A stretch of DNA of 58,492 nt, filler included, from Dugesia japonica (Eukaryota), in the NCBI GenBank assembly GCA_001938525.1. It is 5 parts of 5 records of this genome, joined end to end, with 100 filler letters (N's around TTAATTAATTAA, not from the genome) between each part and the next. Parts side by side here need not be neighbours in the genome. Positions count along the whole stretch, not along the records: positions 31,874 to 41,200 come from MQRL01561067.1; 4 more parts are not named here. The stretch is one strand, 5' to 3'. The notes under the pieces are model-generated. The model was not told the origin of the DNA. It was given only the letters and a program-made list of their open reading frames with translations, and ran no database searches. This document shows, piece after piece, positions 12,501 to 53,400 of this stretch. Numbering within the stretch: the first letter of the stretch is position 1; each line of letters begins with the position of its first letter. A program made the translations under genes and the position numbers.

Positions 12501-12605
12501 TTATTAAGGAGGTCACTGAAAGTTCAATAGTTGTTGACAACAGGAAGTTAAAACTTGCCAGAAAATTGTTGAAATACTTAATGTACAACCTCTTATAAAA
12601 ATAAA

Positions 12606-12666
<61 letters not shown>

Positions 12667-12716
12667 NNNNNNNNNNNNNNNNNNNNNNNNNNNNNNNNNN
12701 NNNNNNNNNNNNNNNN

Positions 12717-12774
<58 letters not shown>

Positions 12775-15700: not shown

Positions 15701-16449
15701 AACTTTGATAAATTTGTAGCAAAAAGTAATGTAAAGTTGTCAATGAAACTTACGCAAGTGCAGTTAAGAAATCAAGTTTTGAACCAAAATATAATAAAAT
15801 GGGAAGTGATTATAGAGGCCATTATTTTCATCTCAAAGAAACTACTCTCAAATATTTTAATATTTCTAGTAATTCGACAAACGATTCAAGGAATAGAATA
15901 ATAATAAGCAGTTAAGAGATATAAATGAAGACCAAGGAAGAGATTTTCCAAACATTCTCTGAAATATGTAGCAACAAAATTTTTTAACAGATGTCAAGGT
16001 AAAATGCCTCCCAGACTAGAATTCATACAGTCTGGTGCTTTTTTTGCTGTGCAGAAACAGACCATAGACGAATAAACTGTCCTTTAAAGAAAATCAGGGA
16101 TATTACATAGATATATAGTAGAGATAATACTGAGATAATTTTTTTGAGATTTCTACTTTAATTTCTAAAATTTTAATAAGAAATTAATTTTAGTTGAAAA
16201 AAACACTGATAGAAATATATTTTAGATTTTAAAATACTTATAACTGTTTTGAGATTTTTTATAAAATCATTGTTTAAAAATTAAGAGTAACTTATATAAA
16301 TTTATAGACGTTGGATTATCATATTCTCTGATTTTGTTTAATTGGATTGAAAAAGCAAATTTACTTCTTTCTTTTTTTGTTTTATTAATAAATTTATGGT
16401 TATTAAAACACTTTTAAATTCAATGGTGAACTCTCAGACTCGCCTAACA

Positions 16450-16511
<62 letters not shown>

Positions 16512-16584
16512 NNNNNNNNNNNNNNNNNNNNNNNNNNNNNNNNNNNNNNNNNNNNNNNNNNNNNNNNNNNNNNNNNNNNNNNNN

Positions 16585-16622
<38 letters not shown>

Positions 16623-19600
16623 TATAACACTTACATCTTAAAATATTTAATCCCTTAACTTAAGATTGATTTTTTAGGTGAATGATGTAAAATTGATTTG
16701 TTTTTATTATAGAACTTGATTTTTCAGATGATTTTCTTAATAAATTTTAAGTATTATTTTTTAAAAAATGTAATATGAGTGAGCACATACCAAAGACGTT
16801 GTAAACATACTTAAGATTTAATCGTTAAATAAATCTTTTTGTAATCTAAATTTTTTTTACTTTATCAATTAAAATGCTAATATCTTTTAAATCACATTTT
16901 TATTTTTTTGTAATTTCTCAATAATTTACTAAAGTTTAAATGGTGACAAACTGTGGAAATAGTACAAAATTCTAGAAAGTTTTATTGAATATTAAAATTT
17001 TGATAGTGAATGATAATACAATTAAACATGTTTTTGTGCGGTTTTTTCTACGATTTTTTTATATGACACACGAAAAATTGCATAAAAACTGCACAAAAAC
17101 AAGTTTTAACAATCGATTTTATTAATTTAGGTGTTAGATGAATCTGTAACATTCATCTTTGCATTTGAAAATTGAACACTTTTCATTCTAAGATTTATTT
17201 AAGACAACAACAAAAACTCAACATATCAATTTGTCTTTTCAAACAAATTTAAAGGCTTTATAACTGAGACTTGAACAAAAAATATTAGTTTATCAAAATA
17301 ATTTTTAAATAAAATTTTAAAATACCATAGCAAAATGTTTTAAAGAAAATTACAAAAATTATATATTTAATTAATTTATTTAATATATTTCAAATTTTCT
17401 ACAAATTATAAATTTAAAGTTTAGTTTTTTGTAAACATTTAAATACGTAAAATTNTTATGATTATTTAACAAATTTATTTTATGATTTAATTAAAAATAT
17501 TTAATAAATAATTTTAACAATTTCGTTTCAATATACATAAAATTTAAAATTGCTTTTAAAAACTACTTTAATTAAAATTATTTATTAAATATTTTTAATT
17601 GTATTATCAAATACAAATTAATATATCATTCAAAAATTTTACTAAGCATGATTCTGTTTTCAGGTAAGTAGAAGTTCATTTAACACTAAATGTTAGTAAA
17701 TAAAAATTTTTGATCTAAAATTTCGACAATTTTTCTTTAAAAAGTTAACATTTTTCTTGTAAAACACCAATTATTTGGTTTATAATAAAAGCAATTACTC
17801 GATAAAACATTGAGACTAAACGCAACAAGGACCCCGCTAGATGGAGGAGGCAATGTGTAGAGAGTATTATTGTTTCCCAAATTTACTGAAATTGGTTTTC
17901 GTTCTTTCATTTCATATTTGAGGAAATCATCTTTGGTAATAATTCCACCTTCTGCTGAGATTTCAGCAATCATTTTATCTACTAATGATCCATTTTTCAT
18001 AGCATATGGTTCATTAGATAAAATTCTCATAGTATTTGCAAGTTTTGGGATTTTTATGATGTCACCAAATACTTTCGGTTTTCCAGTTTTGGAATCAGTT
18101 AATACTTTTCTATATGTTTAAATATTTAAATTAAAATATTTTTTTAATATCTAACCTCAATTCTGAAAATTCAGATGCTGTTGCAGTTTTAAAAAAATAA
18201 TCAATTCCGCTTTGTATACTTTTTGAAACATAAAACCCATTCGTTAATATGTCGATAGATGGTTCGAATAATACTTTCCATTCCAATTTTCCAAATCTTT
18301 TATGAATTTCGTAATAACCAGAAACCAATCCCATTACAGCAATAGATTTACCACCTTTCACAAAAATGAAAAACGTCATAACTTCATTCTAATTATTCAA
18401 TAATATTATTTTAAATTTTCTATGACAGTGTTCTCAGAATCTCAGAATGAACAAGATATGGAGTAACATGCATAAACTCCAACTCGCCTAATCCAGTCCT
18501 TTAATCCAGTTTAATCTTCTCAAATCTAATTTAATTTTATTGTAATTGTGAGGTAAATTAGATAGACAGATTGATTCGGGGAATTTTTTTGTGGCAAATC
18601 AATAAAAGAATAATAANNNNNNNNNNNNNNNNNNNNNNNNNNNNNNNNNNNNNNNNNNNNNNNNNNGTAATTATCCCAAACTTTTGTGGTTTTCTCATTT
18701 ATTTAAAAATACAATTTTAACTGAAACAATCTTTTTTAAAACAAATTTATCTTAAATTTCTATTTCACATTATGACTATTTCTTCAATTTCTGTGTGTGT
18801 ATGAATGTTGCCAATATTACAGAGAAAGAATAATATCAAGGACATTAGAATGATATACGGTATCTTCTATTCCGGCATAAAATGACCAAAACTATGAAAC
18901 AGTTAATAGTATTGTTAAAGATACTTGAAGTCAGGTGAGATTTTGCATTCAAACGCGAGGTTTATAGGCATTCTAAACTAAGTTTAGAAGCTAACAAAGC
19001 ACTGCTTACCATTGTGAACCAAGAAGGTACTGAGACATTAGTCCAGTTTTCTAACCGGACAACTTTAGTACTGAAGTATCCAAAAGTGCAATTGACAAGT
19101 CACTATGTTAATTCTACTATATTCTAAAAAGAGTCACATTATTGCCTGTATGGTGAAAATGTGAAGCTACAATTAATGAAAGAGAGGTTTATGCCTCTAA
19201 CTATCAGACTTTTAAAACAAGTAATGACAATAAAAACTTGATTTTTCTACATGAGATTGGATTTGTGGTTTTGACAAGACCAAGTTGTTGTCAAAGTAAA
19301 AGTGGATAATCCGCTTTCATTAGTGTGTCTGTTGTCAGAAGTAAAAATATTTCTGTTGTACATGCCATTAACAAATATAGTATGATTTACCATAAGGCTC
19401 ATAAGAAAACTGTCAATGGCGACCGCTTCAAGGAGTCTTTGTGAGAGATAAAATCTGATTGTAGAGAAAATGGCATATTAAATCAAATATTCATCATGGA
19501 CAATACCAGAACTCACCATTACAGAGGATTATTTGATGATTCAGAAATTTCAGATTAAAACATTAAATATCTTCTTACTTATTTCAATTTCCTGAACACA

Positions 19601-28518: not shown

Positions 28519-29460
28519 TTAACCAAATGTTGTTACTCGAGAATCTTGATTTATTTCTTTGTTACATCGTAAAAGGTTGTAAATTTTGGTTTTTATGAAA
28601 GCATTTCCAGAAATATAAATGACTGGATTTATTAAAATATTTAAATAAAATAAATAGTACATTAAGTAACTCATGCCTGGAACTGCCCCTGAATTTGATA
28701 AAACAATTGGTATCAAACTTATGGTATATAAAAGCGTTATTATAAATATAAGTCTTCCAAATTTAATAATTTTTTGAAATGCCTTTAAATCCGTTTGGTT
28801 TTCTTTTTTCAATTTGCTATTTCCTATTTTCAAGGAATTTTTTGTTTTCCAAAAGAAATAAATAAAGAGGCTAATGTAAACTAAAATATTCGTTGATAAG
28901 AATATAAAGCATAATACACCATATGTAATTAGATAAAATAGTTTAAGAGATGTTTTTAGAGAACAGGCTAAATCAGTATAAAGTATACCACTAAAAATGA
29001 CATCACAAGAAATACCAATCACATAATAAATAAATATTATAATTTTCATCTTACCAACATTCCATTTAACAGTTGTGGGTAATATAACTGCCAAAAATCT
29101 ATCAACAGCCATGAAAGTAAGGGAAATTACTTCGTATCCTAAAATAACATTTCGAGGCGAAAAAAATAAAATAAGATAAGCGGAATCTGTTTTTGGTTCA
29201 TATTTAATCAAAAATATATTTACAATTAATATTATTGACATGGTAATATCAGTAAAATTCAGCGATTTCATTATAAAATTAAATGTTTTTCGTTTCCCAA
29301 GTATTCGATTATCATTTTTATTGTACTGAAAACAAAGATATATATTTAAAGGAAACCCAATTGAAAGGATGAAACCGTAAAATATAAAAAATTCCAAACC
29401 TGCATTGTCTCTATTGCCCAAACTTTGTAATGAAATGCAAATTGCCATTTTATTTGACAT
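28519..29460 (-). CDS. Single-exon class A (rhodopsin-like) orphan GPCR, 313 aa
   Basis: Intact ORF with about 7 hydrophobic segments: TM1 GFPLN, TM2 LNFTD, TM3 MAVDRF and TM7 INPVIY. Confidence 0.9.
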   Translation of the reverse strand: MSNKMAICISLQSLGNRDNAGLEFFIFYGFILSIGFPLNIYLCFQYNKNDNRILGKRKTFNFIMKSLNFTDITMSIILIVNIFLIKYEPKTDSAYLILFFSPRNVILGYEVISLTFMAVDRFLAVILPTTVKWNVGKMKIIIFIYYVIGISCDVIFSGILYTDLACSLKTSLKLFYLITYGVLCFIFLSTNILVYISLFIYFFWKTKNSLKIGNSKLKKENQTDLKAFQKIIKFGRLIFIITLLYTISLIPIVLSNSGAVPGMSYLMYYLFYLNILINPVIYISGNAFIKTKIYNLLRCNKEINQDSRVTTFG

Positions 29461-30219: not shown

Positions 30220-30650
30220 TCACTTGAGCAATGAACTGCAGATTAATATTCGATCGATTAAACGTTTTTCATTTAAATAGTGTGGCACACAAATATCATA
30301 ACGAGACACATAATCCATCTTAAGCAAATGGTTTGAAATGGTCTTTTGAGATAGATTGACAATATTTGCAATCTCACGCGTTGTATAATATGGGTTTTTC
30401 TTAATCAAACCTACGATTTGTTCAGTCTCTGTCACCAATGGTCTATCTGAACGTTCACCATCTTCACATGTTATATCACCGACACGAAACATTTGAAACC
30501 AGTTCTGACATACGCGTTCACTCACGACACTTTCCCCATACACCTCACAAATTTTCATTTTGGTTTGCATTGAATTTTTTTTCTTTACGGAAATAAAATA
30601 ACATCAAACAACGAAAATATTGATTCTTGTTTTCCTATAATTTCAACTCA
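30220..30650 (-). mobile_element. Mariner transposase N-terminal half
   Basis: ICEVYGESVVSERVCQNWFQMFR...EDGERSDRP, TTREIA and ICVPHYL (WVPHEL-like). Confidence 0.9.
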
Positions 30651-31608: not shown

Positions 31609-33603
31609 ATAATAATTCTTTTTTTGAAAATTTTTTTTTTAAACAATATTTATTTCTTTTTGTCATTTTTTTAAAAATTATTATACATAAAAAATTCTCA
31701 TTATGTAAACAATTATGCAATCTATCTAATAAATCCAATTAATTAAAAACATTCAATAAAGATTTAGAAAGACNNNNNNNNNNNNNNNNNNNNNNNNNNN
31801 NNNNNNNNNNNNNNNNNTTAATTAATTAANNNNNNNNNNNNNNNNNNNNNNNNNNNNNNNNNNNNNNNNNNNNTCGTCCGCTCATTGGTTCCTGGAGTCA
31901 GATTTTCTCGAATCTTGGAAATGATCGCACCACAACTTTGCTTGCCTTCATGCGCGATTGATTGGCAACGAATTTGGAAAACCAAATTCGTGTCGTCAAG
32001 TGGATGCTCTAGTGATACTGTCTGGTTTTCCAACTTATTCATCGCTTGGAAAAACCAGACATAAACATGACTGGACCATATTAAGTTAACTTCTAAATAA
32101 TATTAAACGCTTATTAGCGTTATTTATAATAACGATAATGGGTCGTAGAGGGCCTTTTTACATTTTATTATAGTATTTTCTATTATTTTTATTATTTATC
32201 TTATTATTTCCTACTTGTGCATCCAAATTTGGGTCTTCTAAGCCCAATTTTCATTTTTTCCCGTTTCAATAATAATCGTATAATAATTATAATAATAATA
32301 ATTACATAATAATAANNNNNNNNNNNNNNNNNNNNNNNNNNNNNNNNNNNNNNNNNNNNNNNNNNNNNNNNNNNNNNNNNNNNNNNNNNNNNNNNNNNNN
32401 NNNATTTTCGTATTATTTGGGGATGCTTTGTTAGCTCTTTTGCACTAAAATTATATGTTCTAGCCCAACAATAGTAACACTTATGAAAATATCAAGGGAA
32501 AAATAAATCGAAATAAATAGAAAAAATAAAAAAAGAAAATGATTAGTAAAATTAAATATAAGAATAAAGAAAGGAAAAATAATGAAAAAGTAATGAGTTT
32601 ACATTAAACAAAAAAGAAAAACAAAGAGTAAAAAAAGTGGTAGCATTTGTCTTAAAATAAAAAGTGTAGAAAAAGAAAATATATATTTAAACGATATAAA
32701 AATTTTAGAGAATAAATAAAAAATGAACGGCTAATAAATATATTCAAAAGGCGAAAGTTTACTTAATTAATTCAAAATGACGAAGAAAACCAAACGAAAG
32801 TACAAAAACAGCAAAACTTATATAATAAAGGATGGCTCATTATATTAGATAGTTAGAATTTGAATGAAGAAAATAGTGTAAATAAGAGCAGACCAAAATG
32901 TGAATGGAAAGTGGTCTACGGAAGTCAACAATCAAAATACCATGTATGTAAAAAATGACAGATAATAAAATAAAAAACAATAGCGTAAGATTATAAATTC
33001 GTAAATAATGAACAAATAACAAAAAATTTCAAATTAAACAAATGAAGAAAAGAGTTGAAGCAAAATATAGTATTAAAAATATTATATAAAATTGGGAAAT
33101 CAAAAATAAATTCTTAGTATTAAAAATGGGTTACTGAAATAATTTCGACAATGAAATAATTTGACGTTGAAATTAATTTTGTTAATCATTTTGAGATTAA
33201 TTTTTCTATAGTTATTTCAACAGTCATTAAATATAAAAATTCTAAATAATTACGAATGTGTGAGAGTATTGTTTATATTTATTTCATAGGCAAAATTATT
33301 TCATTTTCAAAATTAATTCATTTCAGTAACCCGTTTTTACACTTTGAATTTATTTTTAATAAATTTGTTGGGGTCCTACCTGAGATGAGTGAAAAAGATT
33401 GTGGCTGGGGAAAAACAGCCCTCAGGGGACCCGTCCAAGAATTTGCCCTGACGCCCCTAGGTCAGGTACTCAGCATATGGTGGTTGACCTCACTCTTAAT
33501 GNGGTGCACGCCCATAAGCCTTTTTATTCGGGTTTACCAGTTTTCCCTTAACATACACAAAAATTTAAGCCAGTGATACTTGAAACATTTATTACAATAA
33601 TAT

Positions 33604-33867
33604 TTACAATTCGTCTAGTACGCTGAGGTCCAACCACTGGTCTGGGTTGGTAGCCAAAAAGTTGAACACCGCGATATCATCGTCGTCGTCCCATTGAATC
33701 ACATCTGGATTACCGATCTGACGGGAAAGGTCAGCGATATATTGTTTTAAAAAGTCTATCTTTCTAAGCAGTAGTTGCTTGTTTTCTGTTCCAGGGCTTT
33801 GGTTTGGGCCACCAAATCGTTTTGTTTTCGAACTATCAAATCCAACTTTTTTATGAGTTTGTCTCAC
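33604..33867 (-). CDS. Cassette ORF E, 87 aa, with KKVGF and an acidic/hydrophobic C-terminus
   Basis: Open frame with no ATG that begins at CCCAG|TG. AATAAA lies at 33593-33588. Confidence 0.55.
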   Translation of the reverse strand: MRQTHKKVGFDSSKTKRFGGPNQSPGTENKQLLLRKIDFLKQYIADLSRQIGNPDVIQWDDDDDIAVFNFLATNPDQWLDLSVLDEL

Positions 33868-33986
33868 TGGGCGAGATGCCTAAGAAGGGCCTGGTCTGTT
33901 TTACGTTTTAAGTGGCGTTCTAGCAATAGACGGCGCATGATACGGTGACATCTCCTCAGACTAGTCGGGAACACGATTCGAGGCAC
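33864..33986 (-). CDS. Cassette ORF D, 40 aa, Arg/Leu-rich
   Basis: Begins at the strong acceptor TTTTCTTTAG|TG. Its stop overlaps the start of ORF E. Confidence 0.4.
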   Translation of the reverse strand: MPRIVFPTSLRRCHRIMRRLLLERHLKRKTDQALLRHLAQ

Positions 33987-34102
33987 TAAAGAAAAATTAT
34001 AGTACAGTCGGTGAACACCAAATTTACAATTCGAAGAAACCAAGTAAAAAATATGCAAATAAATAATTTATTAAAGTCAATCAAAAATGTAAACATGATA
34101 AC

Positions 34103-34462
34103 TCAGGAGCTGTTAGTCTGAGTGCTTTTATCGATCAAGAGGGGAGTCAAAGGGGTAGCTGCCCTCAACTTCAATATATTTTCCAATAGTTGATTCTCAC
34201 GCTCCTGATAAGATTTGATAGTTTCAGTAAAAGTTTCGACCTGTGTTTTCCATACCCTCTCTTGATGCTGGGTGGCGTCTGCTTCAGATTTATAAGACAA
34301 GCCTTTACGCTTATAGCGTTTAACCTTGGCTTCTGCTGCCGCAGTCTCCGCTTCCCATCGCCTTTTAGCGAGCCGATACAAATCCCATGTGAGCTCTATG
34401 TCCTCACTGGTTTCACGTAACTTTTTATTCGGGGCCTGGGATCTACTCAATGATGAATGCAC
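34103..34462 (-). CDS. Cassette ORF C, 119 aa, coiled-coil-like protein ending in DKSTQT
   Basis: Open frame with no ATG that begins at TATTTCAG|TG. AATAAA lies at 34072-34067. Confidence 0.65.
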   Translation of the reverse strand: MHSSLSRSQAPNKKLRETSEDIELTWDLYRLAKRRWEAETAAAEAKVKRYKRKGLSYKSEADATQHQERVWKTQVETFTETIKSYQERENQLLENILKLRAATPLTPLLIDKSTQTNSS

Positions 34463-34757
34463 TGAAATACAAACACATTAAAGGATGGCAGACTCTTAGC
34501 AGATTTATAATTTTAATAAATGTGGACAGACTGGTTTACCATGGACAAAAATAACAACGAGTGGAGTATGTAATATTTAGTCTGTGTAACAACCTTACAT
34601 TGAAATATTATTATTTTTTTTTTAACATGAAGACTATGAAATCCGATAACATATGGTTATTAAAGCAGAAATTTATTTTAATCGACGTATAAAGATATAA
34701 CATAAATTAACAGTAAGTAAGACACCTATTTATTCACATTCTACACAGAAATAAGGT

Positions 34758-35114
34758 TTATTGGTTATTATTATTCGTGACAACAATGGGTGCTGTGTTT
34801 TCGATATCCGTCACTACGGTTGGCTCCCTAACCCCCCAGAGTAGATTAGATATGAAAGCCTGCACCGCGGGAGTTGGAGCGGGAGTGGGAGGCCGATTAT
34901 GGAAAGATGTCGCTAATGTTCGATCAGGACCTTTCCAGGTTTGGTAACGCTGACGCTCGCCAAAGTCTTTTATGCGCGCTACGATGGATTCCACTGGGGG
35001 CAAATTTGACCTGTCGGCCAAGATGCCCACGTCACGATTGTGGGTGTTGTGGTGACAGCGGAAGATTATTTGGCTAGTTTGTCTATCGATTACTCGTTCC
35101 CATATAGATTCCAT
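34758..35114 (-). CDS. Cassette ORF B, 118 aa (MESIWERVIDR...), with a Pro/Thr-rich segment
   Basis: ATG lies 2 nt after the acceptor TTTTTTCCTAG. GC-richer than the flanks. AATAAA at the stop and at 34734-34729. Confidence 0.65.
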   Translation of the reverse strand: MESIWERVIDRQTSQIIFRCHHNTHNRDVGILADRSNLPPVESIVARIKDFGERQRYQTWKGPDRTLATSFHNRPPTPAPTPAVQAFISNLLWGVREPTVVTDIENTAPIVVTNNNNQ

Positions 35115-35258
35115 ATCTAGGAAAAAAACTGAATAAATAGTAAAGTTAAAATAAAACAAAATTACGATATCAGAAACAATTAATAACAATAATAATCAAA
35201 ACATTGCAAAGGTTTATACACATTTTATTTTTTTCATAGGGAAATTAACCAGCCAAAA

Positions 35259-35441
35259 TCACTCTTTATCTAAATCTACCCCGTCGTCCGAGGGGAACAT
35301 TTCTGCTAGACAACAGAGGTCTGTCTCATCTGGGTGCTCTATTTTTCCTCTGGCCAGTAGGTGAGCCATTAACTGTTTTTTCCGACTAATTTGCCGCTGC
35401 TTTCTAATCCAACGTAGGGTATGATATAATTCTGCTGGCAT
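35259..35441 (-). CDS. Cassette ORF A, 60 aa, with a basic N-half and DLCCLAEMFPSDD
   Basis: ATG lies 1 nt after the acceptor TTCTTTAG. AATAAA at 35229-35224. Confidence 0.55.
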   Translation of the reverse strand: MPAELYHTLRWIRKQRQISRKKQLMAHLLARGKIEHPDETDLCCLAEMFPSDDGVDLDKE

Positions 35442-37144
35442 GCTAAAGAATGAAATCATTAACCGCAACATTCAACCCATGACTTAGTTCCCTAAAACTA
35501 ATAGTAGTCGCTGACTATTAATATCACTATGGGGTTTACGTCATTAAAAAGGTAATACCTAAAGGAATGATATTAATTTTGATTGTAATAGTCTTGTCAA
35601 GGAAATAATAATTGGTCTAACATCATCAATAATAACCATAAAAAGTAGTACCACAACATCAAGCAACAGGAACTGAATCATTTTGGCGTTAATAATATAG
35701 CAGAAGGAAAAATATTCCCCATAGTGTTCAAAAGCATGAGAATAATAATATTGACATCAGGAATGGCACCAATGTGGTTAATGGGAATCATAATTTTAAA
35801 TTTTCCATTCGATAGATATTATATTAAGAGGGTGATGCTACTCCGGATAAATTACTAGTAATAACACTAATGGTATAATTATATGGTGATTGTCACAAAA
35901 ATAGTGATAAAAATAAGGCCATTACTAATAGTAGTAATAATGATGATTTTAACAATAAGAAAACTATGAATCATAATAATTATAATAATTATAAAATTTT
36001 ATTTTTAAAACTTCTGCACGTCATCGTTGCTTGGTGATTTTCCCCTTTGATAACTGATTAAATTGATTTGCAACATGTCGGGGTGTGTAGGATTAGTCTC
36101 GGGTATGTGTGCAAGATCAGAGTTGAGCAACAACATCCAGTCAACATAATGAACACACACTCTAATAGTGTGCCTTTCGAGTTGGTGCACATGAAAATTC
36201 TACTGCCAGTTACAATTTAAGTGATGGATCACTGTTTCCTAGAAAAAATCATGAAATGCGATAATTATTTCCATTCCATGATAAAACTTGCTGCCATTCC
36301 GTATCAGTGAAATTCAGCCGATCAGAGCCCGTGATAGTCACATTGGCAGATACTTATCATTAAAACCTGTGGATTTATTATCATTTCGAAACAACTGAAG
36401 TAGTTTATTGTTTTGTTAAATAAATTTTTGAAATTTTATTTTTCTTCAATCACAATTTTGGCATTAAATTTTTGTTATAAAATGATGAAACACAAAAAAG
36501 GGAAAACAGGATGGATTCAACTTTTAGTTTATATTTTTACCACACAGGTAAGTATAAATTTGTTCAGATCTAAATTACCGGGTTTTAAGATATTTATTTA
36601 TTAATATTTTCTTTAATTTAACGAAGGTTAAAACGGAATCTACCGTAGAATGTCATTTAAGAGTCTAAGATTTTCATTTACTTTTCCATTATCATTCAAA
36701 GTTAACAGTAGTCTATTTAATATAAATTAATACGTTTAATTGACTAAATAATGAATTGAGATTTTAATATAAGTAATTTATTAGAAATAATAAACATCTA
36801 AAATTTTTCGATCATACAATTCTTTACATAATAAAATAATAATTTACTTCTTGATATCAACTGCGAATTTCTGCAACGGGTTTGGTTCAAGATTAAAGTT
36901 TCTCTTCCGATTTCGAGTGATGACTTTTCGAATAGATCGAAGTGAATTCTTCTTTTTTCTTTTTATAATTAATTTAATCAGAATCAAAAAGGGTGCTACT
37001 TTGATTTCCTTTTAAGGCGGAATTCAAATTTCTTCGTCCGCAGTTAATTAGTATAATACTATTCCTTCTCTTGATAATTTTTCGATTATGTGGTTTTGGA
37101 GTTCACAATTGTTATAAAAATTTGTTGTTTTTGATGCTAAATTC

Positions 37145-37165
37145 GGGGGTCCTTTTATAGGATTT
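37145..37165 (-). promoter_or_regulatory. TATA box (CCTATAAAAGG) oriented toward the cassette
   Basis: Consensus TATAAAA at 37159-37153 in a GC-flanked context, about 650 bp inside the right terminus. Confidence 0.55.
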
Positions 37166-37819
37166 TCTGCACACCCCAACTTCTTCCAGATTCGTTAGTT
37201 ATTTTTAGATCAACATTTTCTGATTTTATTGGTTCCAGTGCCAATTTCCTAAATATTTTTTCGGAATTTTGGAGTTACCATTGGCGTCTATTTTTGGACT
37301 GAGACATGATAATCGTGTGTTTGTTTTATTTTTATTTTTAGATCTCTTATTGGCCCGATCTTGGAGACCCTGCAGCAATCTTATGGCTGGTGGTAAGTTT
37401 TTTCTTCCTGGCAATTTCGATGCATCTTATTATTTTCCTTCTGTATTTTCTTACCCGGATTCTCTCCGATTTTCCTGAACGGAGTTATTCGGGTAAAACA
37501 GAATTTTATCTAATTTTGCTTCTTTTTATTTTTAAAATTAATTAATATTCTTTTCTGTTAATTGATTATTTTCCATATTGCTTTTCTTGGTTTTTATTAT
37601 TAATTAAATAATTCTTCTTAATTCCCAATATTGATGTAAGTTGGTTTTATGTTACCTGGTTCTTCATATCTATTTCTGATTTTGTTTTATTCTTTTCTAA
37701 TGATTATTTCGCGCTTTGCCTTTGTTATTGGTAAATATGATGGTCCTGCCGTTCTTTTCTGTTGATTCAGTCTTTCTGGTCTTCTTTCGTTTTTTAACGG
37801 GTGTTTCACCCCAACATAT

Positions 37820-39060
37820 TTAATGGCTGCTGAAATAACTATAGAAAAATAATTGTGTATTTTTGTTTAAAAATATCGATATTTTTAAATATAAAATTTA
37901 TATTCTCAGATTATTTGTCGAAATATGATGGATTATTCTTAGATCTTTTTAACTTTAAAACAATTGTGATAGTGAATAAAAAGTATGAATAATTGTAAAG
38001 ATCTCAATTTTACTAATTTGACAAACAACGCATCATTTTATTTGCTGAAGAAAACAATGTACCCGGGAATTTTCAGAATGTACGACGATGTCGAAACATT
38101 AATCTGAAAACAACGAAATATTTTGATCTATACGGAATAAAAAAGGGCTGTAAGATTTTGATTGTAGTTGCTTTCATAGACGCTCATACCAGTTTGGGTA
38201 CACCCGATCTCGTTCGATCTCGTTTGCGCCAAGTCTTTCAAGGTTCTCTTAGAATCATTTATGTGCCTTAGAAGAAGTTAATCATTAGATCATCGATGGG
38301 ATACTCCAATCAGCTAGTAGAATCTGATCCTGCTAGTTGATTTCCCTACGACATCCGATCTACGATGCCCAGTAATGGGGTTTCTTCGCTTGAAAGGGCA
38401 ATGTTAATCTCGGCGTTAAAATACGTGTAGTTCACTACGAAAAATTTTTGAAAAAGAAGACGAAGCATTTGGATTTGAAGAAAGATTCTGAAAGCCTTTC
38501 TTTTGGCCATCAACAATGCTTAAAGATATAGAGGGGCTCTAAATTATCAACGGAATGGAGAGTATGTGAGTATCTATTAGAAGAAGATAGAAGATATGGT
38601 AGAGAAGTTAATGGCTCATAACATGGAACAAAAATAATTAACAAAGGAGCTTATAATGAATAGTTTCAATGACAGGAAGATAAAACATAAGATCAAATCA
38701 GGGAAAATATAAAAAGTATTATATGTATTTCAAACAATGAAAAAGTAGAAAGACATAAAAGACGAAGTAAACATTGAAGAAATAAATGTAGTTCGTAACT
38801 ACAGAAATGCAGAAGTCCAGAACAAATAAGTTTCAACAAGAGTTGTAACGAAGGGATACAACAAAACAGAAACAACGAAAGACGAGAAATCACATGTTGA
38901 ACTTGTAACAAATAAGTCATGGAAGCAGAAATTGTCAAGAAAGAAAATAAGTCCAATACATGTTAGTCTGAACAATACTTAAGAAGAGACTGTTGCAAAG
39001 TTAATTGCTCAAGATGCAAAAATAAAGAACATTACAAAGGTAGACTGTTATACAAATATG
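37820..39060 (+). mobile_element. Decayed Gypsy 5' region and gag, paralogous to 57250-58290, interrupted by an unrelated ~255-bp insert at about 38183-38440
   Basis: Shares CAACGCATCATT, GTTGCTTTCATAGA and GCTCTAAATTATC with the other copy. Knuckle remnant ITC*TCNK*V. Confidence 0.8.
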
Positions 39061-39699: not shown

Positions 39700-40540
39700 T
39701 TGTAAGTTGTGCTATATATCTTTTCATTTAGAAAAGAATTCGGAAATAGCAAAGAAAGATATTATCCAAACAAAACGAATAATTACTCAAGAAAGAATGG
39801 AAGTCATGTTAATTAAATTGAAAATAATAAAAGAAATCGTTTATATAGAGAAGACAAATGCCACTATTGTAATGAAGGACCAAATATTTATCAAGATGAA
39901 TACCGAAATGGCGACGCTTCAAAATAGTATAAATAAAAATGTAAATGAAAGAAAGGAGGATAATGAGTAGATGAGTACAATGATGTAAAAAAAGGTTTGC
40001 AAGTTTGATAAGAAAAAATTGATTAGAGGTCAACCAGAGATTATCAATGATACAAATGGAGAAGTCGAAAATGAAATTCTGACGATAGAAGAAATAAAGC
40101 GGTAAAAGATAGGCTATGACAAGATGCAAGATAGACGAAGTATTATGGTTGAAATACAAGGAGTAAATGTTGATTGCTTGTTAGAGTTAATGTGATGAGT
40201 TTGAGAATTTTTGAAAGATCGAGAAAAGTCAATATATTAAAAAGTGAAGACAGTTTAAGATGTCTCAATAATAGTCCGCTTCAAATCGTAGGTGCAATAA
40301 AGGTAGAAGTAGAATTCGAGAATAAAATCAAAACAGCTTAATTCATTGTAGTGAAACAGATACATTCAGATCTAATAGAATAGAACTACAGAAATAGTTC
40401 TGATTCTAACTGATGAGCAAGACTAAATGTGAAGATAATGAAATGTATCTTTGTAATATAGAAGTAAATTATGGTCGCAATAGTACGAATAAAAATAGAG
40501 TACAGTGGGCTATAAAATATTGATTAACAAGTTAAATTAA
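39700..40540 (+). mobile_element. Decayed Gypsy gag C-terminus/protease
   Basis: VEIQGVNVDCLL and CLNNSPLQIVGAIKVEVEF resemble retropepsin segments. Confidence 0.55.
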
Positions 40541-40559
40541 AGATTAGAGAAAGTTATCA

Positions 40560-41200
40560 CGACCCATCTTTGTACAGTGCCGTTGATCAACCAGCAACAT
40601 CGATTCGTCAATATGATATACAAAAGCACCTTGCAACAATTTTTTGGGACGTGAAAGAAATTCTGCTGTGTGATGTACTTTCTGAAGGAAAAAATATAAA
40701 CGCAGAAATTTACTGCACTCAGTTGGACAAACTCGTAGATGCGATTCGACAAAAGAGACGCGTCTGCTCGGAAACAGTTTTTAAAATTTCCATTTTCTCT
40801 TAGACAACCCTCGACCGCATACGGCACGATTAAATCAAGGTATGCTTGCTGATATCGGTTTTACGGTATTGTCACATCCACCATACTCCCCAGACATTTC
40901 CCCATCCGACTATTACCTGGTTTCTTCTATGAAAAACTCACTTCGTGCGAAAAATTATCACTCTGCTCAAGAAGTTAACAGGGATTTGGAAAACTCGTTC
41001 GCTTCAAAACCTGTAGAATTCTATGTTAACGGCATAAAACAACTTTCAAAACGCTGGAAAAAGTGTGTGGACCTTAAAGGGGACTATTTTCAACATTTCA
41101 GATACACGAGCGAATGATGTTTGGTTTATATTTCTCAATTTACATGTTGTCTTTATTGGTGAAATAAATATTATTTTCTATCGGACAAGACTTTCGTTCC
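40560..41200 (+). mobile_element. Mariner transposase C-terminal half
   Basis: LATIFWD, INAEIYCTQL, DNPRPH and HPPYSPDISPSDYYL. Confidence 0.93.
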
Positions 41201-41459: not shown

Positions 41460-42710
41460 ATACTGCACTGTCCTCTATGCTACTTAATGTGTAATGCCCA
41501 TATGGTACTGATATGTTTTTGTTAGTCCACACTCGCTTATCGTCGTTATTAATGAGTGCAACTTTTTTGTTTTTTTAAACTATATAGCTGGTGGTTTATC
41601 GAACTAATTCTAAATTGATCGATTGAGACTGGCAAATTATTTTCATAACAGTCAAGGTATGACTGATGTTTTAAATTACTATTCTTTATTGTTATGCCTT
41701 TTGCCTTCATTGTTGTTTTATCACTCGAAAGGCTATAACGCTTCGGTCTCAAGGAAATCCATTCTTTGTACTTAACCTCTTTACTTTCATCCTTAAATTT
41801 TCCAATAACAGAAATGAGACTGTTACTGTAAAGGGGGTGGCTTGTGTTGTAATTTGAGGTGTCCAACAACTGATTTGTCCAACAAAATCAAACCGGTTAG
41901 CTTTTCTAAACTTATATCTACAAGTTCAAGGAAAATGCTATCTGTATCGCTGGCTACAATATTTATTTTACAATGCTCTTCTCGACGATACTTTTCCAAC
42001 TCAATGTACTGTAGTTGGTACATTATTAACTTTGAGAGGTCAAGTACCGTCGGTCCAATGTAGCTCGGACGATCTAAATATACAATTTCCTTATTAAAAA
42101 GGACAGCTATCAGATCATCATCTATTTTGATTGATCTTTGAAATCCAGGTTTCGATGTATATGTCATTAACTTCTTGGTTGAATTACACAAGCGCAAATT
42201 TATTCGTTTCTTCATGTTCTCCACCGTGTTCACATATAGGCTATTGTTGAGCAGTTTAGATTAATTTTTTTCTAATTCCGTTTCTGATTCTGACTGCAAT
42301 TTGGTATTCACATCGATATATTTTTGGAAAATTTGTCCCTGTCTAAACCGAACTCCTCTATGAACCTTTGTAACCTCCACACCTAATTCTATATACATCT
42401 GTAGCAGCCTCCAGGGAATTATGTAGGCGTTCTTCGGATAATACGTTAACATTAATTTTTCACTTTACTTCCTGGAGCGCTTTGGTGTTGCGCTGCTACT
42501 GGAGATCGTTTAGATAATCCTGTATTTCTGATGGAATCGCTATATCCACCTCCAATGAGTATCCGTATGATAACGAGTCAAGGTCCGCCCTCTTAGATTC
42601 TTCTAAAACTTCATCTAATCCATTGTGGGCCCACTCTAAATCCGCATAGGGCAGCTTCTGGCTAATGTCCATCCATACAGATTATTAATGTCGATATATA
42701 ATAAGTACAT
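41460..42710 (-). mobile_element. Polinton/Maverick (adintovirus-like) protein-primed DNA polymerase B pseudogene, C-terminal half
   Basis: Motif A YIDINNLYGW, motif B KLLNNSLY..TVEN, motif C VASDTDS, then GKFKDE, LRPKRYS and KAKGI, with frameshifts. Confidence 0.92.
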
Positions 42711-44139: not shown

Positions 44140-46270
44140 ACCGAAACAAAGAAGCAACACTTTAAAATATACAATAAAGTATTGACAGAAATTAAGAATT
44201 CTAGTCTTTAAGTTATTTCAGATAAAATTCAATTCATGCGAAATGAGATTAAATTTTTGTGACACGTTATCAGTAAAAAAGGTGTCAAAACAGATCCAAT
44301 TAAAATAGAAGCAATTAAGAACTTTCTTAAACCAAGAGGCTTTTTAGGAATTTGTAATTATTATCGCAAGTTTATTAAAGATTATTCGAAAAAAGCTAGA
44401 TTGTTGGAATTATTGTGTAGTGGATCGAGTAACAAGAAAATTGAATGGGCGAACGAATTAGAAGAAGTTTTTAATGGAATGAAAGAAGCACTAACGATGT
44501 TTCCAATATTATGTCTTCCAGATATAAATAGAGGATTTATTTTGGACACGGATGCGAGTTTCGATATAATTGGGGCAGTACTTTTTCAAAAGGACAACAA
44601 TGAACAAGAAAGAGTAATTGCATATAGGTCACACGCAATGACGAGTCACGAGAAAGGATATTGCACTATGCGGAAAGAATTACTCGCAATTTACTACTTT
44701 TGTATTCATTTCAAACATTACTTATATGATAAGAGATTTATCCTCAGCACAGACCATAAAGCCATTACTTTTATGCTAAATACCAAGAAGCCGAATACAT
44801 CACAATTTCAAATCTGGATTAATTATTTGAGTAGTTTAGATATAAAATTGTAATATAGAAAATGATCGTTCCATACAAATGCGGATATGTTGTCAAGGAG
44901 TAAATGCGATACTTGTGCACAATCTCAAATGGCTCATGAAGATCCCAAAAGTTGAAAATTAAAAGCAATGATGTTAAATATAGTAGATATTCAAGAGAAA
45001 CACGGTAAGTTTGGAGAAAATGATGAAGGAACATAGATACCTGATGATAAAGTAGAAGAATCGTGATGATGGATCGTGTTTTGTGTCATGCTGGAGCAGA
45101 AAAGGTAGCAGCGTATATGAAGCAAAAATATAACGCGAAACATTTGTGGAGAAAAGTACAAGAAGTGGTTCGAAGCTTTATAACACGTCAGTAAGCTAAA
45201 GTTTTGACAACAAAAACGAAGGAAGAAATGAAAAAGACTCAGCCAGCCGAAATGTTTGAATTGTTATTTATAGATGTGTGTGTACCACTGCGGGAGACAA
45301 GAAGTCGTAAAAAATATGTTCTCAGTATAAGAGATCAATGCAGTAAGTAATTGCCGTGATAGCAATGGCAAAACAAATGTCAATCATTGTCTTAATAGCA
45401 ATGAGAAAACAAGATGAAGATACCATATGGAAAGCATTAATAGAGAAGTGGATATTAAAGTTCGAGTGTCCGAGAGAAATTCAAGTTGATTGTGGAAGAG
45501 TATTTGAGTTTAAATCAATGAAAGATTTTCAGCTAAACATGAAATTACCCTCAGGTTTTCAAGTACATATCATCATAACACAAATAGACAAATCGAGAGA
45601 CAATTTAGAACTATGCGAGATATGATAAATGCGAAACTTAATGAAAGGAAGACCTTAGATTAGGCTGATGTATTGGCAGGTATAGAATTTACCTGGAATG
45701 CTACAAAACTGAAAACTATTGGAAAAAGCCCAGCTGAAATCGTATTTGGGAAGAGAATAAGCAGAAAAATATGGTACAAAACAGATTCTCAAAGAGAGCA
45801 CAAAGAACATGATAAAGAGATATTGACCAAAAGACAATTCGAGGTTGGTGATGAGGTCTTAGTGAAAGTTGAAACCAGAATCAAGAACCAAGATCGTTTT
45901 GAAGGACTCTAAAAGGTCAAAGGAAAGGTTCATGACAGACGTTATATCCTTGGAGATACAAACGGAAAAAGTGTCTAAAGAAACGCAGAGAAGATCAAAT
46001 AATTTCTTAAAAGGGTGGATGTGAGTATGTTTTGAAAAGGAAGTTGAAATTTTTGTGCTTTGATTGAAAAATTTTATTTTTGTAAATTTTTTTATAAAAC
46101 TGCAAATTACAAATTAATTAAGAAGTTAAAATAATTATTTTGAATGGAAGTTTGATCTAAAATTTTGCAATTGTTATTGAAATTGTTTTTTAAAAATCTT
46201 TAAAGTGTTTGTTTGAAATAATTTTACTAGGAGTTGAATTTTAATGTTGATGATCCGATGAGTACTCAAA
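44140..46270 (+). mobile_element. Decayed Gypsy pol (end of RT, RNase H, integrase) with PPT and start of the 3' LTR
   Basis: GVKTDPIKIEAI, FILDTDAS, TDHKAI, LCHAG, IQVDCGRVF and GDEVLVK...FEG, then AAAAGGGTGGA|TGTGAG at about 46010-46025. Confidence 0.93.
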
Positions 46271-46276
46271 ACTCAT

Positions 46277-48810
46277 CTAGCATGCTCTATGAACGATTTC
46301 AATCGTAGATCTACTTTTTAGATTTCCCGTTTTTAGATCCATTGCTATCCCATCTAGCTGTTCAAGAGCATCCATTCCAATCAAACATAGTACTGGGCTA
46401 TCTCTCATTACCAACACATTTTGATTTATAACTCTGCCTACTATAATTAGTTCGACTTTAATCAACCCATTGATATTAAGCGCATTTTTCGATATTGAAC
46501 GGATGACTTCTTCCGAAGTTGTCATATTAATTAGATCTGCATTATCTAAAATTCCCTCTGAAATAATAGTTACACTAGAACCTGAGTCTAGTATTGCCTT
46601 TATAGAGAATTCATTTAGCTGCAATATCTTTAGTATAAACTCTTCTTATTCTTTATTCTCCATAATGGGTATATCTCACTTAGCAATCCCATTAAAAATT
46701 CTTCGCACTCGATCTGATCCCTCACATTACAATGGTTTTCTGAGATTTCCATCATCTCATCAACGATTTGCAAAAGTCCACAGTTATCGCTTGTTCTCTG
46801 AACTTTTGTAAAACTTGAGTACGGATGTACTTTAAACAACACCTCTGGCGTTTCTCGAAATTGGCAATCCTCTTCAGTTTTAATCTCGGATTCTTTTATT
46901 ATTTCCTTTGCCACGCGTTTTTTGCATTTGTCTGTACCAATAATTGTATACAATTCTGTTCCCTACTGCCTCATTTTGGCATATTCAATATATCATCCAG
47001 TATCATTAATTTTACTCGCTAATTCACATTGTAATTTACGTAATAAAATCAACTCTGTTGCTTGAGGTACTGTCTTCATTATCTCGTGATATTGTAAAAT
47101 CTTAACTTCATTTTCCATACTGCGGATCATTCCTAGATCCATAATATAAGCATCCATATACTCCAAAATTTGATTTGCGAATTCTAGTTTAATAATTCTT
47201 AATTTTTCGGATTCACCAATCATTTGAACTAAGTCTCTGACTATACTATTGTCACTAATAGTTTTTGTGAGTTTCTCTCCATTGTTATCAATAATCACTA
47301 CACATACATCTTTTAACCACGAAATTTGCGCATTTCTTGTCCAATCTTTGTCATAATGAGTTTCAATTCCGAAATGTGTTGGGCTCCATTATTACAGTTA
47401 TAAATACATTTCTCCATCACATTTTCCAATTTTTCTTGAGAAAACTTCAGTTTTATTAACTTCTGCAAAATTACTGCAATCTCCTCTATATCTTGTTCGC
47501 AATTTTCAATATTAGATGATAAATGTGAGTAAAGAATTTGGCTTTTATCTACTACGACATCGTTTACCATTTGTGAAATTTGGCCATGAGGATTTGGTAT
47601 TTCACAGTCGATTTGTGGCTCATTTTCTAAAAATATCATTGAATTTTAGTTATCGCTATCTGAGTCCTTTATGGTAGTAAATTTATCCCACTTTCGTTTT
47701 ATATCGTCTAATTCTGCCTCGACTTTTATTCTGCTACTATTATCGGGTGAAAAAGTTGCATTAACTGTAGAATTATTATCAATTTGACTGATTTCTTTAA
47801 AATTGGTTTTTGGAATCGATCAACATTATTTGGACATGATCTTGCAATATTTCTGACATGAATAACATCATTGTTGGCCTTTAGAATTTAATTTATTTCT
47901 TTGCGGAGATGGAAAGCTGAATACAACTACGTGACTTTGGAGTGTAACAATATCTAGATAGATGTCCCGTTACATTGTATTGTTCTCCTGTTTTCACTAT
48001 TTCCTCCATTGCCCATTTTTGTACAGCATTGATTTGCGGGATGTCCTTTAAGTTGACACCTAAAACACGTCACTGTCCTTTTTAAGGCATTTTGTTGAAA
48101 TTGCTGTTTCTCTCGAATTTGGGAAATTGTCTATAATTACTTTGCGACGGTGGATTGAATGTTCTTGGTTTGAAATTTGGTCTCTCTGGTTCAAGTCTCT
48201 GAAAATTTTGCCACCTTAGTGTAATTTGCTGTAGAAGCATTTGTTGTCACCGCAGAATTTACTTCAATCCGTTTAGTCTTTTTAGCGAGATCATCAAAAT
48301 CTTGATAATCTGCTAAACTAAGAATTGTTCTATTACTTGGTTGTGCTCCCATTAGAAATTGATCTTGCAATACATTTTTAATATGATCTCCCTAGTTTTC
48401 TCGTAATCTGAAGACTTTTTCGGCCAAAGTACTCAACTCAAAAGCGGATTTATTCACCGATTCTCCTTCATTTTGTGCTCAATTAAAGTATTTCTTTCTC
48501 ATAATTCTACTCACATCTTCACTGACTAATTTTACGGCTAATGCATCTTTGCAATGTGCCCAAGTATCCAATTGTGAAGCCTCTAACTGACTTTATGCAT
48601 CTCTAGCATCTCCTTTTAGATCTAATGGCAATTGAATTACCATAATTTTTTCTGGCCATCCATAAGCTCTACTATACATATAATAATCTCACATAAAATC
48701 CACAAAATTTACGGCATCTTTTCCATATTGTGATACAGGGAGTTTTAGACAATTTGTTCCATTAACTGCATTATTATCTTCCATATCTCTGAAATTGCTC
48801 TCCATATTGC
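46277..48810 (-). mobile_element. Decayed LTR-retrotransposon gag-protease
   Basis: Gag N-terminus (AYGWPEK), CCHC knuckle CFRCQLKGHPANQC and protease AILDSGSSVTII...CLIGMDAL. Confidence 0.88.
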
Positions 48811-50491: not shown

Positions 50492-53400
50492 GATAATAAC
50501 CTTGTAAGACACTTAGATGCTTGTGAAACAATGGGAAATGCTACAACTATATGCTCTGATAAAACAGGAACTCTTACTACAAATCGTATGACTGTTGTTC
50601 AATGTTACATTGGAAATAAGTACTATCATGATAGTTTATCACCATTAACAGATTTGCCAGAATCTATCAAAGATATAACAGCTTCAGCAATAACATTAAA
50701 TTCCAGTTACACTTCAAATATTATGGTAAGATTGTTATAAATTTTTATTTTCATGTATGGTTGATTTCAGTTTTTTGTGGAAAAGACTATTAAAAATAAT
50801 ATAAAAATATAAAAATTTTTAATAAGACTATTTAAATAATAAATCAAGAATAAAAGATGTAATTCAACATAATTCTTAATAAAAAAAATTAAATTACCGT
50901 AATAACATTTTAGCAACAACTCCTTATAATTCCGCTTTATAATATAATTCTGCGTTTCAGATGCCTAGTAGATTAGAAGTTTGGAATATTTGAAATACTA
51001 AATTTCCGTTCAAGTTTAAGTTTAAAATAGATGAATTAATTGGTGCTATTCTTTTACAGAGATGATGGTATTATTTCCAGTATGTGGCATTATACCCATC
51101 TCAACTATGAGGAAGTAAAGTACAGACAGTTTTTTATTGTTTTAATAAAGTATAAAGCAGCAGAAATTGGAATTTAAAATTGTAAAATCCAGACATTATT
51201 GAATTGTGTAAAAATTAATTAATTTGAATTTGTCTTATGAATGATAGTTGTAAGTGTATGCTGGATTATTTTTAATTATAATTATTCCTCTAATTGAAAA
51301 TTAAATTGTACTCCTAATTATTATCTTGTTTCGTAATTATTGTATTATTGTAAATTTTTATCAAGTATTAATTTGTAAGTTGTTTGTAAAATCTTTTTTT
51401 AATAAATATTTTTGGTCCTCATTCAATGTATTTATTCCAGTTATTTTATTTACTGTTAACATGCATATCTTAAATGAACAGAAATATGGTAACACTAGCA
51501 ACACTAATTTATAAACAAAATTTGGAACACATTCCATATTGTGTCTTGATTTCAGTACTAAACATATTAGGCTGGTAAGAAACTAATTTCCTTTTTTAAC
51601 TTTGAAAATGGCAAACTGAAATAACTCAATGACAAATAAATTACTAAATTATTTTAATTATGTGTGTGAGTTCCGTGACAAAATTGAATCTAGAGCAGAT
51701 GATTTTAATACGACTGGGATAAGAAAGCTAGTTTCTCATTATTATTAAGCATACGTTGATTGTGATCGTTGCTTTTGTAATTTATTAAGTTTAGTTGCCT
51801 TTGAGTTATTTCATTTTAAAATTGAAAGTCAGAAACGGAAATTATTTTCTTACCAACCTAATAATTATATAAAAAGGCCAGTGGTGTATGTTTGTTTTTT
51901 GATTGTATGTTTATGCGTGAAGCTCAATATTATTCAACAAATTTTACAAAATTTCAAAAATTAGGATCTTTTATATAGTATCTTTTATAATTTTAAATTT
52001 AGACATGAAAAATTCAGTGTTATATGTTCGTTTGTTTGTTTGTACTTGATTCTCAATAATACTCAACAAATTTCAAAATCTTTCAAAAATTTTTATTTTA
52101 GGTTTTAAAATTTCAATTGATATATTAAAAGCCCATTGGTGTAAGTGTATTCCTTTGTTTGTCCACGATGCTCAAAATTTTAAACTAAAGCTAAAAGACG
52201 AAAACATGCCGACGAACTTGATCAGACAACTTTCTGAAGTAATTTATGTGCTAAATAATGCGGGTGGTTAGTGGAAAAATCAATGCTTACAAGNGATTCC
52301 TTGGAAAACAGAAAGAAAGAGAGTAGGCGGAAGACACATGTCGAGTAAAATAAGATCTCTTGATCACGCCCCGAACATACAAACGAAAAATACAAAAATG
52401 GGACGCCTAAAAGGCGGGCAATTGACGGGAACCATTTTAATAGACATCATTTGCATGCTACATCGACGGTAAGTATATATCATTTTATCTTATTTTTTGT
52501 AAAACTGTAATGATGCATACAAACATTAATTTAAAATTATTCTGCAATTGATTTTTTTCTATCCGCATTCTTTTATCACGGATAAATATTAACGCTCATA
52601 AATATTTTTTTTAAGATTGGTAAAAAAATTTAAAATTCAAAGAATCACTTTTCTATTTTAACTACCCAATTAAATGCTTATAATGATATTTGCTAAATTA
52701 TATTGAATAAAGTAATTGATTATTTAAATATTATAATCATATTGGTTTTTTGTGATTTAGTAATTACATACTTTGTATTTTAGTATTACGCTAATTATTA
52801 ATTATTGGAATCAATATTTGAATTTTTTGTATAATCCATATAACAATAGTAAAATAATTGACATTTTTAGTTTCCTGAAAATTCTAAAGAATTGCCGAGG
52901 CAAATAGGAAATAAGACTGAATGCGCATTACTGGGATTTGTGACTCTACTTGGAATAAATTATGAATTACTGAGAATAAAGTGGCCCGAAGAAATGCTTT
53001 ACAAAGTTTATACTTTTAATTCTATTAGAAAGTCTATGAGCACAGTAGTAGAGTTAGATAATAATATGGGTTACAAAATATTTACTAAAGGAGCTTCAGA
53101 ATTAATTTTAGAAAAGTAAGTTGTAAGAATATAGTAATTTTATTTTATTATTTATCAGGTGTGCCTGGTTTCTTGATGAAAATAGTGAAGTAAAACCATT
53201 TTCAATTGATTATCATAAAAATGTTAAGAGAATAATTGAAAAAATGTCAAATGAAGGTTTGAGGACCATATGTATTGCTTACAAGCGTTTTTTAAAAGGT
53301 GAAAATTTCAATTGAATATTTATAATATTAGGTCTACAAATAAATAATCCAACTTTTTTATTATGTTATATAAGTAGTGCAATTAGTTTAATATTCCAAT

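Follow-up and report, generated by a model that had tools for sequence, protein, structure and literature searches.

Does a retroelement of the planarian Dugesia japonica encode a ligand of the host retinoblastoma (Rb) protein? The question is raised by a 60-residue frame, ORF A, on the minus strand of a 58,492-nucleotide stretch of assembly GCA_001938525.1 (the window, made of five parts of five records joined by filler). A preliminary description had pointed out in this frame an LxCxE-like motif, a CK2-type acidic site and a basic, NLS-like segment, and had proposed a cell-cycle-manipulating accessory protein, possibly mutated in this copy, in which Ala-46 (codon GCA at 35306-35304) takes the place of the expected glutamate. 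The frame, the motif and the basic stretch could be read directly at the positions given in Table 1. Against the large-T motif quoted in that description, DLCCLAEMFPSDD is the best of the 44,414 stop-free 13-mers in the window (BLOSUM62 score 30), a score that 4 of 60 locally shuffled windows also reached; it is also the best 13-mer of the window against the quoted E1A motif, with a score equalled in 12 of 60, and from the window alone the likeness to viral motifs appears borderline above chance. The median large-T score of 54 unbroken copies is 14, the window copy standing near the top of the family because of its SDD. This SDD is not a CK2 site by the consensus printed in the available text of PMC8502044, (ST)XX(DE), because the +3 residue is Gly (S-D-D-G).

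Table 1. Coordinates of the LTR, its reading frames and associated signals in the window
Feature	Position	Strand	Description	Basis
Solo LTR	33366..37816	-		Sharp ends common to copies; flanks unrelated except in duplicates; LTR-primer site-gag junction on natural contigs
Candidate splice acceptor	35443..35455	-	Pyrimidine tract and AG just 5' of the ORF A start (putative)	
ORF A	35259..35441	-	60 aa; predicted helix 3-29 (amphipathic, basic), predicted helix 39-48 (acidic-hydrophobic), acidic tail	
Basic segment	35376..35405	-	RKQRQISRKK on helix 1; NLS-like by sequence only	
Quoted motif	35283..35321	-	DLCCLAEMFPSDD; position 46 (Ala) is a variable column, Glu47 the conserved one	
ORF B	34758..35114	-	118 aa, conserved; own ATG behind acceptor-like AG; no known family	dN/dS
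ORF C	34103..34461	-	Basic, coiled-coil-like; homology starts at YAG/TG, no ATG	
ORF D	33604..33985	-	Basic, coiled-coil-like, acidic-aromatic tail; starts at YAG/TG	
AATAAA	33523..33528	-	3' of ORF D; candidate LTR polyadenylation signal (putative)	

ORF A is carried by a 4,451-bp solo LTR in minus sense. The ends of this LTR, TGTTGGGG...CCCCAACA, are of the TG...CA type, and the limits near 33366 and 37816 were sharp when fetched loci were mapped back, with flanks that, duplicates aside, are unrelated between copies (33 left-end and 27 right-end rows). The target-site duplication of the window copy is imperfect (AATT / TATT), and three other full-length copies have 4-5-bp duplications (GTGTC, ATTA and TTAT). 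A 501-base query against the planarian's own genome (854 Mb, AT-rich) returned 593 candidates, with 39 other scored matches that are 76-89% identical. The LTR end followed by TGG matched at 307 places genome-wide, and the control pattern at none; the same primer-site-like sequence and leader continue from 22 of the 30 junction loci that were read. This sequence is complementary to tRNA-like 3' ends at four places. Because two of the four show a Pro anticodon arm on direct reading, ARAGORN calling no whole tRNA at any of these loci, priming by tRNA-Pro is probable. A Polinton/adintovirus origin of the element is ruled out by the LTR, the primer site and the reverse transcriptase, and a non-autonomous TIR transposon by the internal flank common to copies. 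Between 35550 and 36000 the LTR is of low complexity and rich in ATT/ATC, and some copies have long Ile-rich or Asn/Asp-rich frames there (194 aa in L097).

The rest of the window holds what we take, from their motifs, to be decayed Polinton-type DNA polymerase B fragments (41550-42700, minus strand), for which Pfam gave no match. An assembly gap lies between, and these fragments are unrelated to the LTR; a piece related to them adjoins an LTR in another locus (L103). Further presumed features are Mariner-like transposase fragments (40528-41114, plus; 30223-30603, minus), other Gypsy-like pol and gag/protease fragments on opposite strands (44263-46000, plus; 46280-47645, minus), plasma-membrane Ca2+ ATPase-like host exons (50492-55417, plus), a single-exon GPCR-like ORF of 313 aa (28519-29460, minus) and gamma-glutamyltransferase-like exons (11983-18388, minus). 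Two diverged copies of another repeat, 78-86% identical in aligned pieces, are located 19.3 kb apart at 38017-38912 and 57555-58209.

Following the leader led to a natural contig, C609115, which contains the internal region and then the start of a window-type LTR; the internal region is at least 21 kb long on one contig. According to Pfam, the frames of C609115 comprise Retrotrans_gag, zf-CCHC, Rad60-SLD (Ubl), Bcl-2, Monjiviricetes_fusion (a fusion protein of the mononegavirus type), two aspartyl proteases, RVT_1, RNase H, rve, BIR and RING, in the order gag-Ubl-BCL2-env-PR-RT-RH-IN-BIR/RING. The gag, Ubl and BCL2 matches are below the Pfam cut-offs and have weak E-values, while the E-value of zf-CCHC is not weak. 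Other contigs join ORF C/D, the LTR end, the primer site and the leader directly, and one of them (C638084) runs on into gag. A polypurine-tract pattern gave 0 matches, and no clear tract is seen ahead of the 3' LTR on C609115. On the 3' side of the integrase this contig (L165, L166) also has an orphan frame of 416 aa, one end of which is hydrophobic, a BIR-BIR-RING set that is IAP-like but has broken frames, and a coiled-coil frame ahead of the 3' LTR. The architecture of C609115 matches that of Burro, a group of giant Gypsy-like LTR retrotransposons, as set out in the available part of PMC6431247, and by architecture and host we assign the window LTR to a Burro-type giant Gypsy element.

Four conserved small genes lie within this 4.45-kb LTR. 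Their order, A-B-C-D, is fixed even in widely diverged copies, each is preceded by an acceptor-like AG, and splicing to all four is presumed. ORF B has a dN/dS of 0.13-0.31 (14 copies). ORFs C and D have no ATG; their homology begins at AG/TG (34461 and 33985 in the window) in 22 of the 23 ORF C copies and all 27 ORF D copies that were read. Each may have its start codon or frame completed by a common exon further upstream. ORF D of the window copy is broken by one stop and one frameshift. In L033, L035 and L129 it is intact, and its basic region, coiled-coil-like stretch and acidic-aromatic tail form an activator-like layout. If the AATAAA serves as the polyadenylation signal of the LTR, ORFs A-D would fall in U3.

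ORF A itself starts with the ATG at 35441; a further ATG lies in frame at 35471 but is not kept across copies. Many copies have the frame open, with start and length unchanged, and even at 40% identity its length and core columns persist. Jukes-Cantor (JC) dN/dS values are 0.15-0.26 (258 pairs with pS 0.15-0.74 among the 54 unbroken copies), a ratio that is flattered because this set and that of ORF B were chosen for open frames and by motif pattern, and that binning by pS also biases; the 11 closest pairs gave 0.53, and 1,162 pairs were saturated. Differences between close pairs at codon positions 1, 2 and 3 are 0.13, 0.09 and 0.28. ORF A is under purifying selection and is almost certainly a real gene of the Burro LTR. 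The proposal of an accessory protein holds to this extent: dN/dS, LTR and domains together show that a mobile, virus-like element carries ORF A as a conserved accessory gene. Three raw RNA runs placed 69, 22 and 10 reads on a 4.6-kb stretch that takes in the whole LTR, with a mean depth below 1 in the two bins over ORF A, and no splice joint was seen in them; nor was one seen in contigs of four presumed-RNA runs, though these contigs cover ORF A. PIWI silencing of BURRO1 (available text of PMC8532177) may explain the sparse reads on the LTR.

Is the alanine a lesion of this copy? The pattern P-D-E-x-D-L-x-C-x-x-E (LxCxxE) has 4,804 exact matches genome-wide, compared with 88 for LxCxE with Glu-46 and 37 with Lys at position 46, each against a control of 0. 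Visual inspection of the 100 matches listed for the LxCxxE pattern showed no Glu codon at 46. A motif-blind sample consisted of the first 30 of 1,290 loci found by an upstream pattern only, with frameshifted copies kept in, and 27 of its loci reach the motif. Position 46 is Ala in nine of these, Val in eight, Lys in four, Thr in three, another residue in three and Glu in none. The surrounding positions are conserved: D41 in 27/28, the Leu in 25/28, Cys44 in 24/27, F/L45 in 26/27, Glu47 in 23/27, M/L48 in 24/27 and F/Y49 in 23/27. Ser51, Asp52 and Asp53 are found in 1, 3 and 5 of the 27, respectively. By these counts Ala46 is normal and SDD is particular to a few copies. The suspicion that the copy in the window is mutated at this place is not supported; Ala, Val or Thr at 46 is the family norm and not a lesion. 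The conservation expected of the motif is borne out for its Leu and Cys, and fails for Glu at the LxCxE position and for SDD.

The 88 Glu matches nevertheless show that LxCxE is encoded in some lineages, against the great majority of copies. The first 20 of them all proved to be homologs of ORF A, at 41-84% identity, and ORF B adjoins in 14; in one Glu row, L191, the glutamate is merely a shifted Glu47. On a tree of 54 copies, in which Glu rows were deliberately over-sampled and whose midpoint root gives no direction, 17 Glu rows need 4 changes as compared with 14.6 in shuffles, at least 3 being forced by supported branches. Because so few changes are needed, whole minority lineages carry LxCxE, a trait that comes and goes. 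A CK2 consensus (S/T-x-x-D/E) within 12 residues after E47 is found in 4 of the 54 copies, CxxC in none, and the printed CR1 pattern, (DEN)(LIMV)XX(LM)(FY), in none. Among the features of LxCxE ligands, the family has Leu at +0, Cys at +2, acidic residues at -1 to -3, a bulky chi2 and a hydrophobic residue at +2/+3; Glu at +4 and the downstream CK2 site are not family features.

AlphaFold2 predicts two helices in ORF A, residues 3-29 and 39-48 (mean pLDDT 78.8, pTM 0.48), from folding of the isolated chain, in which motifs that bind extended can look helical. Conserved columns are L5, L9, I12, R16, Q23, L24, H27 and L29 in the first part and L42, C44, E47 and F49 in the second, where columns 43 and 46 vary and 42, 44, 45, 47, 48 and 49 are kept. 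The NLS-like segment is present as described, on the long predicted helix, with R16, R20 and K22 conserved and I18 and K21 variable, so that only some of its positions are kept. Searched with a profile of ORF A, 1.84 billion representatives yielded a single match, P0016 (E 2.6e-19), which keeps the hydrophobic pattern and E47; its residue at 44 is Leu instead of Cys, and position 46 is Ala. The freedom of columns 43 and 46, the predicted helices and the pattern in P0016 suggest a helix rather than an extended motif. Other searches gave no lead: Pfam returned nothing at cut-off for ORFs A-D, a word-based protein search with ORF B had no match, the best PDB sequence for ORF A had an E-value of 0.41, Foldseek with ORF A found nothing at E<=0.001 in the PDB or a viral library, the Atlas had no usable match for ORF A or for a copy of ORF D, and metagenome and viral contigs yielded no confirmed relative.

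We favor, at a probability of roughly 0.5, a reading in which ORF A is an LTR-borne accessory adaptor, likely made from spliced RNA, whose acidic-hydrophobic helix docks on a host nuclear regulator and not in the LxCxE cleft of Rb. With ORFs A-D placed in U3, full-length elements would express them from the 3' LTR through alternative use of the four splice acceptors, in the manner of accessory genes of complex retroviruses. Helix 1 would supply a basic or oligomerising face. Helix 2, with L42, F/L45, M/L48 and F49 on one side and the variable positions 43 and 46 exposed, would together with the acidic tail form a binding surface resembling a short activation-domain helix, and the protein, acting together with the BCL2-like, BIR and RING domains of the element, would condition the host cell for it. 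Several points weigh against this adaptor: searches by Pfam, PDB profile, Foldseek and Atlas gave no match that would point to a partner, pTM is only 0.48, the runs examined contain few RNA reads and no splice joint, and Cys44 is as conserved as its neighbours (24/27, own genome), while a plain activation helix needs no Cys.

Could ORF A instead be an E7/E1A-like antagonist of planarian Rb that binds the LxCxE cleft, canonical in the Glu-46 lineages and by a relaxed motif elsewhere? The genome encodes an Rb-family B-box that is most like p107, in an exon that shares 95% identity with Schmidtea mediterranea Rb across 74 residues. The FYN segment is retained in this B-box, as is the Phe that corresponds to p107 F861 (numbering from the available text of PMC4421984), but by our mapping p107 Y849 and K853 are probably replaced by Phe and Arg; at these two places 12 of 13 parasitic flatworms have Tyr and all 13 have Lys. 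The planarian Rb protein (P0002, cf. L196:977-1198) also lacks, where the B-box begins, a short stretch that is present in other flatworm proteins. The Phe/Arg change may alter what the cleft binds and so perhaps lets it tolerate the relaxed motif. A displaced Glu is compatible with binding in the case of LIN52 and p107 (PMC4421984, in the part available). According to the available portion of Putta et al. (bioRxiv 2022.06.10.495386), binding is tuned by acidic residues at -1 to -3, a bulky chi2 and a hydrophobic residue at +2/+3. ORF A has these features, mostly without the Glu, and its context fits further in the aromatic chi2 and the acidic tail; the 88 LxCxE matches, moreover, fall in whole clades and are not scattered mutants. 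On the other hand, the same portion of Putta et al. calls the L, C and E contacts invariant among structures, the Glu contacting helix backbone amides, and about 98% of pattern-matched copies are without Glu (88 vs. 4,804), with Lys there in 37. Moreover, a free position 46 beside a kept 47 is the opposite of an alternating extended motif, CK2 sites and CxxC are rare or absent (4/54 and 0/54), P0016 has neither the Cys nor the Glu, and the Glu of L191 is a shifted Glu47. An Rb antagonist whose motif drifted together with an altered host cleft, in thousands of LTR copies and as part of a spliced four-gene cassette, is in our estimation rather unlikely.

The conserved residues could also form the protein's own core, as in a small helical hairpin or oligomer subunit, or serve as its interface with a different protein of the element, ORF B, C or D included, the likeness to the motif being incidental. 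Conserved hydrophobic and polar columns on both helices and the retention of the A-B-C-D order in widely diverged copies fit such a subunit, while the low pTM, the lack of a structural match, and an acidic N-cap and tail that look like a free binding segment do not; we regard it as unlikely. The CR1 segment of E1A binds as a helix. Helix 2 might accordingly mimic the E2F / E1A-CR1 helix and bind Rb at its A/B groove instead of the LxCxE cleft, since C-hydrophobic-x-E-[LM]-[FY] occurs in 42 of 54 copies in a predicted helix, with free and fixed positions as in the CR1 pattern; this is quite improbable, however, given that the CR1 pattern as printed in the available text of PMC8502044 is found in 0/54 copies and that the aromatic residue is followed by Asp in 0/54 and by Pro in 34/54. 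A chance frame in non-coding LTR DNA, which the short length, the lack of a family match and the near absence of reads in three raw RNA runs might suggest, is very improbable in view of the dN/dS of 0.15-0.26, the third-position excess, the conserved start, length and acceptor, and the independent homolog in another data set (E 2.6e-19).

With a four-gene orphan cassette under purifying selection and at least 4,800 ORF A matches, Burro resembles a complex retrovirus, and the cassette offers small candidates for how the element manipulates planarian cells. An element-encoded Rb ligand, if real, would tie transposon biology to the control of neoblasts, because planarian Rb is needed for stem-cell maintenance (PMC4412126, in the part available). 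The retrotransposon would then drive its host cells to cycle and would keep them alive by means of its BCL2, BIR and RING domains. The natural Glu-46 and non-Glu lineages provide a ready comparison in which no sequence has to be altered.

Burro and motif genes of the Oncoid type (available text of PMC8502044) were already known. In the literature on Burro and planarian LTRs, LxCxE and LxCxxE, judged mostly by titles and abstract openings, we found nothing on LTR-encoded Burro ORFs and no LxCxE protein in a retrotransposon. The accessible part of PMC11410931 mentions Burro in passing only, and that of PMC12774355 describes a dispensable LXCXXE-like motif in a fungal virus. The element resembles Burro / GYPSM1 of dugesiid planarians (PMC6431247) in its Gag with CCHC knuckles, Ubl (PF11976), BCL2-like domain, env between BCL2 and protease, RT-RH-IN and BIR, but differs in that ankyrin, MATH and dUTPase domains were not returned by a Pfam scan of 14 frames. 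The Burro / GYPSM1 section of that paper names no ORFs within the LTR, whereas here a 4.45-kb LTR carries a four-ORF cassette under selection. The Oncoid ORFs of adintoviruses and Polintons (PMC8502044, in the part available) are likewise accessory genes predicted by motif to act on the cell cycle, in integrating elements with Bcl2/IAP homologs. In contrast to ORF A, which lies in an LTR and has CxxC in 0/54 copies, they are found near PolB in DNA elements and combine LXCXE, CK2 and CXXC.

With the LxCxE oncoproteins HPV E7, adenovirus E1A CR2 and SV40 large T, ORF A shares a small protein, D-L-x-C, an aromatic residue after the Cys, a hydrophobic residue at +2/+3, an acidic tail and, in a minority of lineages, the full LxCxE. 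It differs from them in the absence of the Glu from about 98% of matched copies, in having no conserved CK2 site, no CxxC and no CR1, in the predicted helicity of the segment and in being carried by a retroelement. Accessory genes in or overlapping the LTR are known from complex retroviruses, namely sag of MMTV, nef of lentiviruses and tas/bet of foamy viruses. No sequence similarity to these genes was found, and the present element is of the Gypsy type with four such ORFs; the likeness lies in small U3 ORFs that are likely reached by splicing.
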